The notes beneath the pieces are model-generated. The model was given only the letters and a program-made list of their open reading frames with translations. It was not told where the DNA came from and made no database searches. A DNA stretch of 64,000 nt. Origin: Staphylococcus phage SAML-229. The stretch's first letter is position 1. The number at the start of each line of letters is the position of its first letter. Positions 57,156-57,644 of the stretch are shown here, in pieces. A program made the position numbers and the translations under genes. The stretch is taken from sequence record OP352124.1. One strand, 5' to 3'.

Positions 57156-57644
57156 ATGAGAGAAACAAGGGAATATATTATGTTTTGGGGTAAAGAGGAT
57201 ATTTATTCTAATTTCTACCCTATAAAGTTTAAACACCAAGGAAGAACATTTAATAACTCAGAGCAAGCCTTTATGTGGCGCAAAGCAAGATACTTTAATG
57301 ACTTTCAAATAGCAGGTGAAATACTAAATGCTAAGAACCCAAACCATGCTAAAAGTTTAGGTCGTAAAGTTCGTAATTTTAATGAAGAACAGTGGAATAA
57401 AGTAAGATATAATATTATGGTAGAAGTAGTTAAAGATAAATTTATGACTACACACCTAAAGCAAAGAATATTAGACACAGATGTACGTAAAGATTTTGTA
57501 GAAGCTTCACCTTATGATAAAATATGGGGAGTAGGTCTTAAAGCAAATGACCCTAAAATATTAGAGCAAAGTAACTGGAAAGGTCAGAATCTATTAGGCA
57601 AAGTAATGGAAGATGTTCGAGTACATTGTATCTACAATAAGTAG
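57156..57644 (+). CDS. NADAR-domain (YbiA/DUF1768-like) protein
   Basis: 162 aa; 'FWGKEDIYSNFYP...FNNSEQAFMWRKARYF...LGRKV...ASPYDKIWGVGL' follows the conserved NADAR motif order. Confidence 0.6.
   Translation: MRETREYIMFWGKEDIYSNFYPIKFKHQGRTFNNSEQAFMWRKARYFNDFQIAGEILNAKNPNHAKSLGRKVRNFNEEQWNKVRYNIMVEVVKDKFMTTHLKQRILDTDVRKDFVEASPYDKIWGVGLKANDPKILEQSNWKGQNLLGKVMEDVRVHCIYNK

Follow-up and report, generated by a model that had tools for sequence, protein, structure and literature searches.

The 64,000-nucleotide window analyzed here, from Staphylococcus phage SAML-229 (OP352124.1), carries an intact and genuine gene for a NADAR-family enzyme in a phage K/Sb-1-type staphylococcal phage. The gene lies at positions 57156-57644 on the + strand, corresponds to gp028 (ORF4) of phage K and to orf011 of phage Sb-1, and is supported by its open reading frame, by profile matches and by the fold predicted for its 162-aa product. 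We lean towards regarding gp028 as a nucleic-acid de-ADP-ribosylase serving counter-defence or repair; its activity, nucleic acid as its substrate in vivo and the staphylococcal system that it would oppose are what we infer by analogy with better characterized NADARs. The family assignment is already public, and hence not new, since gp028 bears the label 'YbiA-like protein; putative DUF1768 protein' in KF766114 (GenBank) and 'NADAR family protein' in the RefSeq records of both K and Sb-1, and the transcriptome study of phage K (PMC9241854) calls it an 'N-glycosidase YbiA-like protein'. The view that phage NADARs in general counter DarT is likewise already public. What is added here is the placement of gp028 as a stand-alone, Bas60/Pn-like NADAR and not an AdfN or DarG1 protein, a residue-level check of its active site, the correction of its expression class from 'early' to 'middle', and the recognition of a kept trio of genes consisting of a phosphatase, gp029 and the NADAR.

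The open reading frame given for this locus by the earlier note is exact, with an ATG start, 162 codons and a stop, and the opposite strand is interrupted by many stops. A strong Shine-Dalgarno sequence, AAAGGAGA, can be read at 57142-57149 (+), 7 nt 5' of the ATG. Over positions 55000-59500 the window shows 100% identity to Staphylococcus phage Sb-1, and its identity to phage K, as to numerous further genomes of Kayvirus (Herelleviridae, Twortvirinae), is 99.7%; the NADAR protein does not differ from the phage K copy. With a pI of 9.6 and a net charge of +9 it is basic, which is compatible with nucleic-acid binding. A search of the whole window against Rfam returned four tRNAs and nothing else.

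Judged from profile comparisons, the match of gp028 to the NADAR family is far beyond chance. The Pfam model PF08719, NADAR (DUF1768), is matched with an E-value of 8.2e-40 and a score of 137.2 bits (gathering threshold 35.1) over profile positions 2-159 of 163, and PHROG 1017, a group of 'unknown function', is matched with an E-value of 5e-66. The motifs by which the earlier note had recognized the family are all present and in order: FWG at residues 10-12, SNF at 18-20, SEQAFMWRKA at 35-44, LGRKV at 68-72 and SPYDKIWGVG at 118-127. Among PDB sequences there are two matches in all, the Phytophthora nicotianae NADAR (PnNADAR, 8BAU; E 5e-23 with the single sequence and 4e-38 with a 44-sequence profile) and YbiA (2B3W; E 6e-5). 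The AlphaFold2 model built from 44 homologs has a mean pLDDT of 96.2 and a pTM of 0.90, and in Foldseek searches against the PDB it is closest to 8BAU, a structure with ADP-ribose (TM 0.88, E 1e-11), followed by 2B3W (TM 0.77), with no other fold at E<1. The model gives gp028 a predicted YbiA-like alpha+beta fold, in agreement with the comparison to E. coli YbiA that had been proposed beforehand.

The residues that hold ADP-ribose and carry out catalysis in 8BAU have been described by Schuller et al., and in HMMER and MAFFT alignments the catalytic Glu (E43) and catalytic Lys (K50) of PnNADAR correspond to E36 and K43 of gp028. Further along the alignment, R79, W89 and R93 of PnNADAR correspond to R70, W80 and R84, and E125, D130 and W133 to E116, D121 and W124, with E116 standing at the position that marks the NADAR families. 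All eight predicted catalytic or ADPr-contact residues are kept in gp028, by alignment and not by docking, and the catalytic Glu/Trp pattern expected by the earlier note is preserved together with the Lys, Arg and Asp positions. Neither of the outcomes that the earlier note would have taken as refutation, a missing HMM match to NADAR or the loss of this pattern, was thus observed. Seven of the eight are invariant among 44 homologs, the exception being R84. The counterparts of the catalytic Glu and Lys in E. coli C7 are E88 and K95, and mutation of E36 and K43 in AdfN, the T4 'phage NADAR' gp30.3, abolishes function in T4. The ortholog in the divergent Kayvirus SYL, at 89% identity, keeps all eight active-site residues, and comparison of the two genes yields a dN/dS of 0.095; gp028 is under purifying selection.

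The NADAR superfamily comprises four families, namely the stand-alone NADARs, the YbiA-type proteins, the T4-type 'phage NADARs' and the DarG1 antitoxins. At the position of PnNADAR E125 the stand-alone and YbiA-type families have Glu; DarG1 has Asp there, and the T4 type His. The nearest blastp relatives of gp028 are other Herelleviridae and Bacillus phage proteins (54% identity to that of Bacillus phage FADO, 44% to that of Listeria phage LP-124 and 37% to that of Enterococcus phage EF24C), and these are followed by PnNADAR (35.4% identity, E 1e-29), bas60_0111 (34.9%, E 1e-28) and YbiA (27.7%, E 7e-10), while T4 gp30.3 gives no blastp match at E<=10. Its closest blastp relationships and the Glu at the marker position, used here in place of a full phylogeny, argue that gp028 is a stand-alone NADAR of the PnNADAR type, a family that includes PnNADAR, S. 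coelicolor SCO5665 and the E. coli sigma70-linked NADAR (Schuller 2023; Mikoc lab 2026). PnNADAR is the top match in both sequence and structure, and all its ADPr contacts and the marker Glu recur in the single-domain gp028; the phage-encoded protein is, however, shorter and lacks both the 16-residue insertion and a small N-terminal insertion of PnNADAR.

The YbiA/COG3236 proteins share with gp028 the predicted core fold and the Glu at the marker position, and gp028 passes the cut-off of their NCBIfam model, TIGR02464, with 194.5 bits against 73.7. This top-scoring model is named 'riboflavin biosynthesis intermediates N-glycosidase', which speaks against the preferred reading and for a role in metabolite damage control, in which gp028 would hydrolyse the two earliest reactive intermediates on the riboflavin pathway. 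Names pointing the same way are found elsewhere, many metagenomic homologs being called 'ribA/ribD-fused uncharacterized protein' and some phage records reading 'GTP cyclohydrolase II' or 'N-glycosidase YbiA'. YbiA also hydrolyses guanine-linked ADP-ribose (G-ADPr), however, and therefore the riboflavin name of the family reflects the activity that was found first and is not distinguishing. A role in riboflavin damage control seems to us highly improbable: gp028 is only about 28% identical to YbiA and much closer to PnNADAR, it consists of a single domain with no RibA or RibD fusion, and it has neither a riboflavin nor a LexA-operon context, riboflavin genes being absent from its operon and from the annotated stretches of phage K that were read (3.1-36 kb and 68-148 kb). 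An obvious benefit to a lytic phage is also absent.

Among the closest known relatives of gp028 is a phage NADAR with a demonstrated function, NADAR^Bas60, encoded by bas60_0111 of Escherichia phage PaulScherrer (Bas60), which we located in that genome. The two proteins are homologous over their full length and share the motif VEASPYD.I.G, and both match the PADLOC candidate-system model PDC-M42C, while neither matches a DarG model. Both are also products of orphan genes in large myoviruses that carry Prs-like and NAMPT-like genes. They differ in that the Bas60 protein is acidic (pI 5.9, against 9.6 for gp028) and has two insertions, and in that its phage infects a Gram-negative host with known DarTG1, whereas none is documented for staphylococci.

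With AdfN, gp028 shares the superfamily and the proposed job, and the numbering of the catalytic residues, E36 and K43 in both, coincides by chance. An AdfN-type assignment was rejected, because gp028 has Glu where the T4 type has His and shows no BLAST similarity to T4 gp30.3; the two share no PADLOC match either, and AdfN acts specifically on the modified DNA of T-even phages. The DarG1 antitoxins of DarTG1 systems resemble gp028 in fold class and presumably in the chemistry of guanine de-ADP-ribosylation, but gp028 has Glu116 in place of their catalytic Asp (D171 in E. coli C7), and it starts at the core beta-strand, without the basic N-terminal extension proposed to bind ssDNA. A profile of the gp028 clade retrieved no DarG1-type NADAR chain among PDB matches at E<=1, but 8BAU and YbiA only. 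Pfam searches found no ART domain in the 14 open reading frames of the window between 53520 and 60886, among them all 11 of the NADAR transcription unit, and none of the five proteins scanned with PADLOC matched DarT or DarG. Lacking an adjoining ART or DarT, the catalytic Asp and the N-terminal extension, gp028 was rejected as a DarG1 antitoxin.

The NADAR gene is the third of 11 + strand open reading frames between two terminators. The upstream one, at 55953-55979 (+), is the intrinsic terminator of the preceding transcription unit, carries a terminator annotation in KF766114 and stands directly before a sigma-70-type promoter at 55985-56013 (+), matched by sequence as TTGACT-17 nt-TAAGAT with a TG extension; the intrinsic terminator that ends the unit lies at 60885-60913 (+). 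This promoter is identical to the experimentally supported TU14 promoter of phage K (K position 12635; PMC9241854 supplement). The earlier note had placed the NADAR gene in the phage early region, but RNA-seq of phage K assigns TU14, including gp028 and gp030, to the 'middle' class, with maximal abundance by 20 min (PMC9241854). A second Kayvirus study treats sigma-70-type promoters as all 'early', so that 'early region' holds in a loose sense only.

The first gene of the unit, at 56041-56748 (+), is phage K gp030, a calcineurin-like metallophosphatase (Pfam E 2e-16; PHROG 'NinI-like'). Of its sequence only the N-terminal metal-binding motifs resemble ApaH, PP1 or Pnkp, and a substrate assignment for this gene was dropped for that reason, although gp030 is a closer match to phosphatases of the ApaH and PP1 types than to Pnkp. 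Between gp030 and the NADAR gene lies gp029, an open reading frame of 132 aa at 56745-57143 (+), whose start codon overlaps the stop of the phosphatase gene (ATGA). It has no detectable family and is restricted to staphylococcal Twortvirinae-like phages, and the best PDB match of its profile, a tRNA ligase at E 0.09, is not significant. The trio of phosphatase, gp029 and NADAR is kept in Kayvirus SYL, and in a metagenomic relative with 68% identity a metallophosphatase lies two genes from the NADAR.

Downstream, gp027 (57656-58198) has been called a 'nucleotidyl transferase' by one group, a label left unsupported by our searches, which gave no match in Pfam (sub-threshold noise only), NCBIfam or PADLOC, nor in the PDB with profiles of 6 or 13 sequences. 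Its AF2 model is poor (pLDDT 64), with a GNAT-like top Foldseek match at E 0.075 and TM 0.31, and the family is lineage-restricted, with 8 representatives among 1.8 billion proteins. Having no family and a poor model, and being absent from Kayvirus SYL, gp027 was rejected as a functional partner of the NADAR.

In the reading that we prefer, gp028 would be an active stand-alone NADAR, that is, a small basic N-glycosidase that binds the ADP-ribosyl group and cuts the bond joining ribose C1'' to an exocyclic amine on a base (N2 of guanine, perhaps cytosine too), so that free ADP-ribose and the restored base would be released. Host RNA polymerase would transcribe the gene from the sigma-70-type promoter, with a peak in the middle phase of infection, and gp028 would remove the ADP-ribose placed on phage DNA, or RNA, by an ADP-ribosyltransferase toxin of the host or of a rival element, allowing phage replication and expression to go on. 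Members of all four families, and indeed every NADAR tested, hydrolyse guanine-ADPr on DNA and RNA in vitro, and the stand-alone and YbiA types also cleave cytosine-ADPr. The orphan NADARs of phages Bas60 and Bas32 neutralise DarT1, and with them phages grow again in the presence of DarTG1 (PMC11257639; Johannesman et al.); the earlier suggestion that a phage NADAR could act against ADP-ribosylating defences agrees with these experiments and would extend by analogy to gp028. Although G-ADPr is hydrolysed by both E. coli YbiA and T4 NADAR, neither of them rescues cells from DarT1, and activity in vitro is therefore no predictor of protection in vivo. The preferred reading is also weakened by the lack in gp028 of both a DarG1-type ssDNA-binding extension and the PnNADAR insertion. 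Among the papers retrieved by our literature searches we found none that links DarTG to staphylococci or to kayviruses, and the surveys of staphylococcal defence among them never use the term, which amounts to absence of evidence. Toxins that are not ARTs, the DS-32 PRTase for one, are also known as partners of NADARs.

Homologs of gp028 were found in 690 phage records, mainly of large myoviruses infecting Staphylococcus, Escherichia, Listeria, Bacillus, Enterococcus and Klebsiella, a spread that agrees with a published survey reporting NADAR in 27% of myoviruses. The gene neighbourhoods of the clade point to RNA repair and to NAD/ADPR metabolism as much as to DNA. In the Listeria Pecentumvirus LP-124 genes for the ligase RtcB and for an RNA ligase flank the homolog, and phosphoesterase and HAD genes are close by; in a 462-kb phage it lies between PNK3P and a P-loop kinase. 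When genes within 10 kb were counted at 80 viral loci, grouped into 56 clusters at 80% identity, PNK-like neighbours were found in 13/56 clusters and phosphoesterases in 9/56, against 0-4/56 for each of seven control gene families, with RtcB in 3/56; these counts, which reflect single-sequence phmmer searches and the common descent of large phages and do not amount to an independent statistical test, are no more than suggestive.

Such neighbours are what would be expected if gp028 were an accessory to RNA repair that, together with end-healing and sealing enzymes, restored host or phage RNA (e.g., tRNA) damaged by host defences, either by taking base-linked ADP-ribose off RNA or by disposing of repair by-products derived from ADP-ribose. 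The removal of G-ADPr from RNA as well as DNA by NADARs fits this role, as does the weak similarity of the operon metallophosphatase to the phosphatase module of bacterial Pnkp; the latter is confined to the N-terminal motifs, however, and the enzyme is nearer the ApaH/PP1 type. In Kayvirus itself the RNA ligase, PhoH and RNase H genes are located about 15 kb off, in other transcription units. We consider the RNA-repair role distinctly unlikely.

The neighbourhoods also bear on the possibility that gp028 acts in soluble ADP-ribose and NAD metabolism, cleaving N-glycosidic ADP-ribose or phosphoribosyl conjugates that serve as immune signals or arise as by-products, so that a host signal would be destroyed and/or ADP-ribose recycled by phage genes for NAD+ reconstitution. 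In Bacillus phage FADO a macro 'ADPR-1''-phosphatase-related' gene lies two genes from the NADAR, and on the contig of a 57%-identical homolog Prs-like, NAMPT-like and metallophosphatase genes are found within 4 kb. Macro-domain and NAMPT-like genes occurred within 10 kb in 5/56 and 4/56 of the viral clusters, respectively. Phage K carries an adjoining pair of Prs-like and NAMPT-like genes, gp065 and gp064, outside the window, in an arrangement that appears to match the one described for NARP1 (Adps and Namat), and Iyer et al. have argued that soluble ADPr derivatives are preferred by phage NADARs. The Kayvirus NADAR and NAD genes are, however, separated by some 120 kb of the map and belong to different transcription units, the phage NADARs studied by experiment all have ADP-ribose linked to DNA as their substrate, and the literature shows no NADAR acting on an immune signal. 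A more specific tie of NADAR to Thoeris or to His-ADPR signals was dropped, as none of the papers retrieved for NADAR together with Thoeris treats both, and the top-ranked ones do not mention NADAR. The earlier option of a role against NAD-consuming defences or in salvage has no more than circumstantial backing, from the gene neighbourhoods of other genomes, and an action on soluble ADP-ribose derivatives appears to us fairly unlikely.

The bacterial members of the clade come from Bacillales, Burkholderiaceae, Chryseobacterium, Myxococcota and others. The best 80 bacterial loci, taken from a single genome for each species, include none from Staphylococcus, and neither an ART nor a toxin recurs among their neighbours. 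In 18 Chryseobacterium species an NrtR-type regulator (NUDIX and NrtR_WHD) is encoded directly upstream of the homolog, which again favours a connection with NAD metabolism, and the Burkholderiaceae homologs are found in a prophage-like setting with a Gp3-like RDF and an ATPase recognized as SbcC-like by its motifs.

A more novel variant is that the trio of phosphatase, gp029 and NADAR, conserved in Twortvirinae, forms a module dedicated to an as yet undescribed staphylococcal defence other than DarTG1, one that modifies bases with ADP-ribosyl or phosphoribosyl groups, and that the ADP-ribose released is fed to the NARP1-like pair. We hold this to be decidedly improbable; if true, it would link nucleic-acid de-modification to NAD+ recovery.

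The gene has been re-identified here and not discovered, and its value is that of a well-supported candidate for a simple biochemical and genetic test. Kayviruses, Sb-1 and K among them, serve in phage therapy, and knowledge of their counter-defence genes is therefore useful for predicting host range and resistance. The defeat of DarTG1 by orphan phage NADARs has been proven in E. coli phages only, and a Gram-positive case, in hosts for which we found no report of DarTG, would either extend this principle or point to an as yet undescribed ADP-ribosylating defence of staphylococci.

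Downstream of the NADAR gene, its transcription unit differs from that of phage K in two places. An ORF of 143 aa (59312-59743, plus strand), weakly similar to DUF1024, is intact in the window, whereas codon 85 of its phage K counterpart is changed from GAA to TAA and the phage K annotation splits it into two genes, gp024 and gp023, which are therefore fragments of one gene. The second difference, revealed by comparing the window with phage K, is a two-gene segment of ~910 bp on the plus strand (59740-60650), which has no phage K counterpart and encodes plus-strand ORFs of 135 aa (59743-60150) and 161 aa (60163-60648), both without a match in Pfam; in phage K, gp023 directly adjoins gp022. 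The segment is thus a two-gene indel within the NADAR gene's own transcription unit. For another gene of this region, gp027 (57656-58198, plus strand), some phage 812/K records give the label 'nucleotidyl transferase', which is supported by neither sequence nor fold. Among 1.8 billion proteins, its tiny family has 8 representatives, and the divergent Kayvirus SYL lacks the gene.

The window also carries plus-strand tRNA genes, three of them clustered at 30970-31201 (Asp-GTC, Phe-GAA, and Trp-CCA) and one for tRNA-Met at 54348-54419. The latter is followed by ~600 nt, to 55053, that lack a credible ORF and have a G+C content of 0.34-0.37, as compared with ~0.27. In phage K, a long non-coding RNA, lnc002, has been reported between gt001 and gp032, and the ORF-free stretch 3' of the window tRNA-Met corresponds to it; this stretch matches no Rfam family. 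Further downstream, GC skew and AT skew both reverse sign near 61000 (region 61000-61500), and a hairpin at 61191-61210 scores as a terminator in both directions. Together, the skew reversal and this bidirectional terminator mark the point where the plus-strand block of middle genes gives way to the long-terminal-repeat genes, which are transcribed in the opposite direction.

Homologs of the NADAR protein are found in quite different surroundings. In Listeria phage LP-124 (L002:2463-6175), the homolog is flanked on one side by an RtcB-type ligase and on the other by another RNA ligase, and HAD and phosphoesterase genes follow downstream; no such RNA-repair-like cassette surrounds the Kayvirus gene. 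In 18 Chryseobacterium species (loci L124, L130, L131, L138, L143, and 13 others), an NrtR-type regulator combining NUDIX and NrtR winged-helix domains (Pfam E 5e-22 and 8e-21) is encoded directly upstream on the same strand, ~200-870 bp before position 5001, where the NADAR match lies; downstream comes a 2OG-Fe(II) oxygenase. This arrangement suggests that in Bacteroidota the present NADAR clade is under ADP-ribose-responsive regulation. In Caballeronia and Paraburkholderia (L112, L114, L117-L121, and others), the homolog belongs to a conserved prophage-like block, with a Gp3-like recombination directionality factor upstream (Pfam E 6e-41) and, recognized by sequence motifs only, an Mre11/SbcD-like phosphoesterase, for which Pfam gave no match, and an SbcC-like ATPase downstream.

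Outside the window, phage K has two neighbouring annotated genes, gp065 ('ribose-phosphate pyrophosphokinase') adjoining gp064 ('nicotinamide phosphoribosyl transferase') at 133970-136365 (L021:15971-18366). The NARP1 pathway of NAD+ reconstitution has been described as the gene pair Adps and Namat, and gp065/gp064, having the same gene pair and order, is a putative match by gene arrangement. The same pair is carried by Escherichia phage Bas60.

NADARs also occur on the host side. The Kayvirus protein (57156-57641) matches PDC-M42C, which PADLOC lists as a candidate defence component, with E 7e-35 and, weakly and below the cut-off (52.8 bits against 240), the NCBIfam model 'NADAR family anti-phage protein' of DS-32, a defence system composed of a NADAR and a PRTase. 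Hosts, therefore, too employ NADARs of the same general type within their defence systems.
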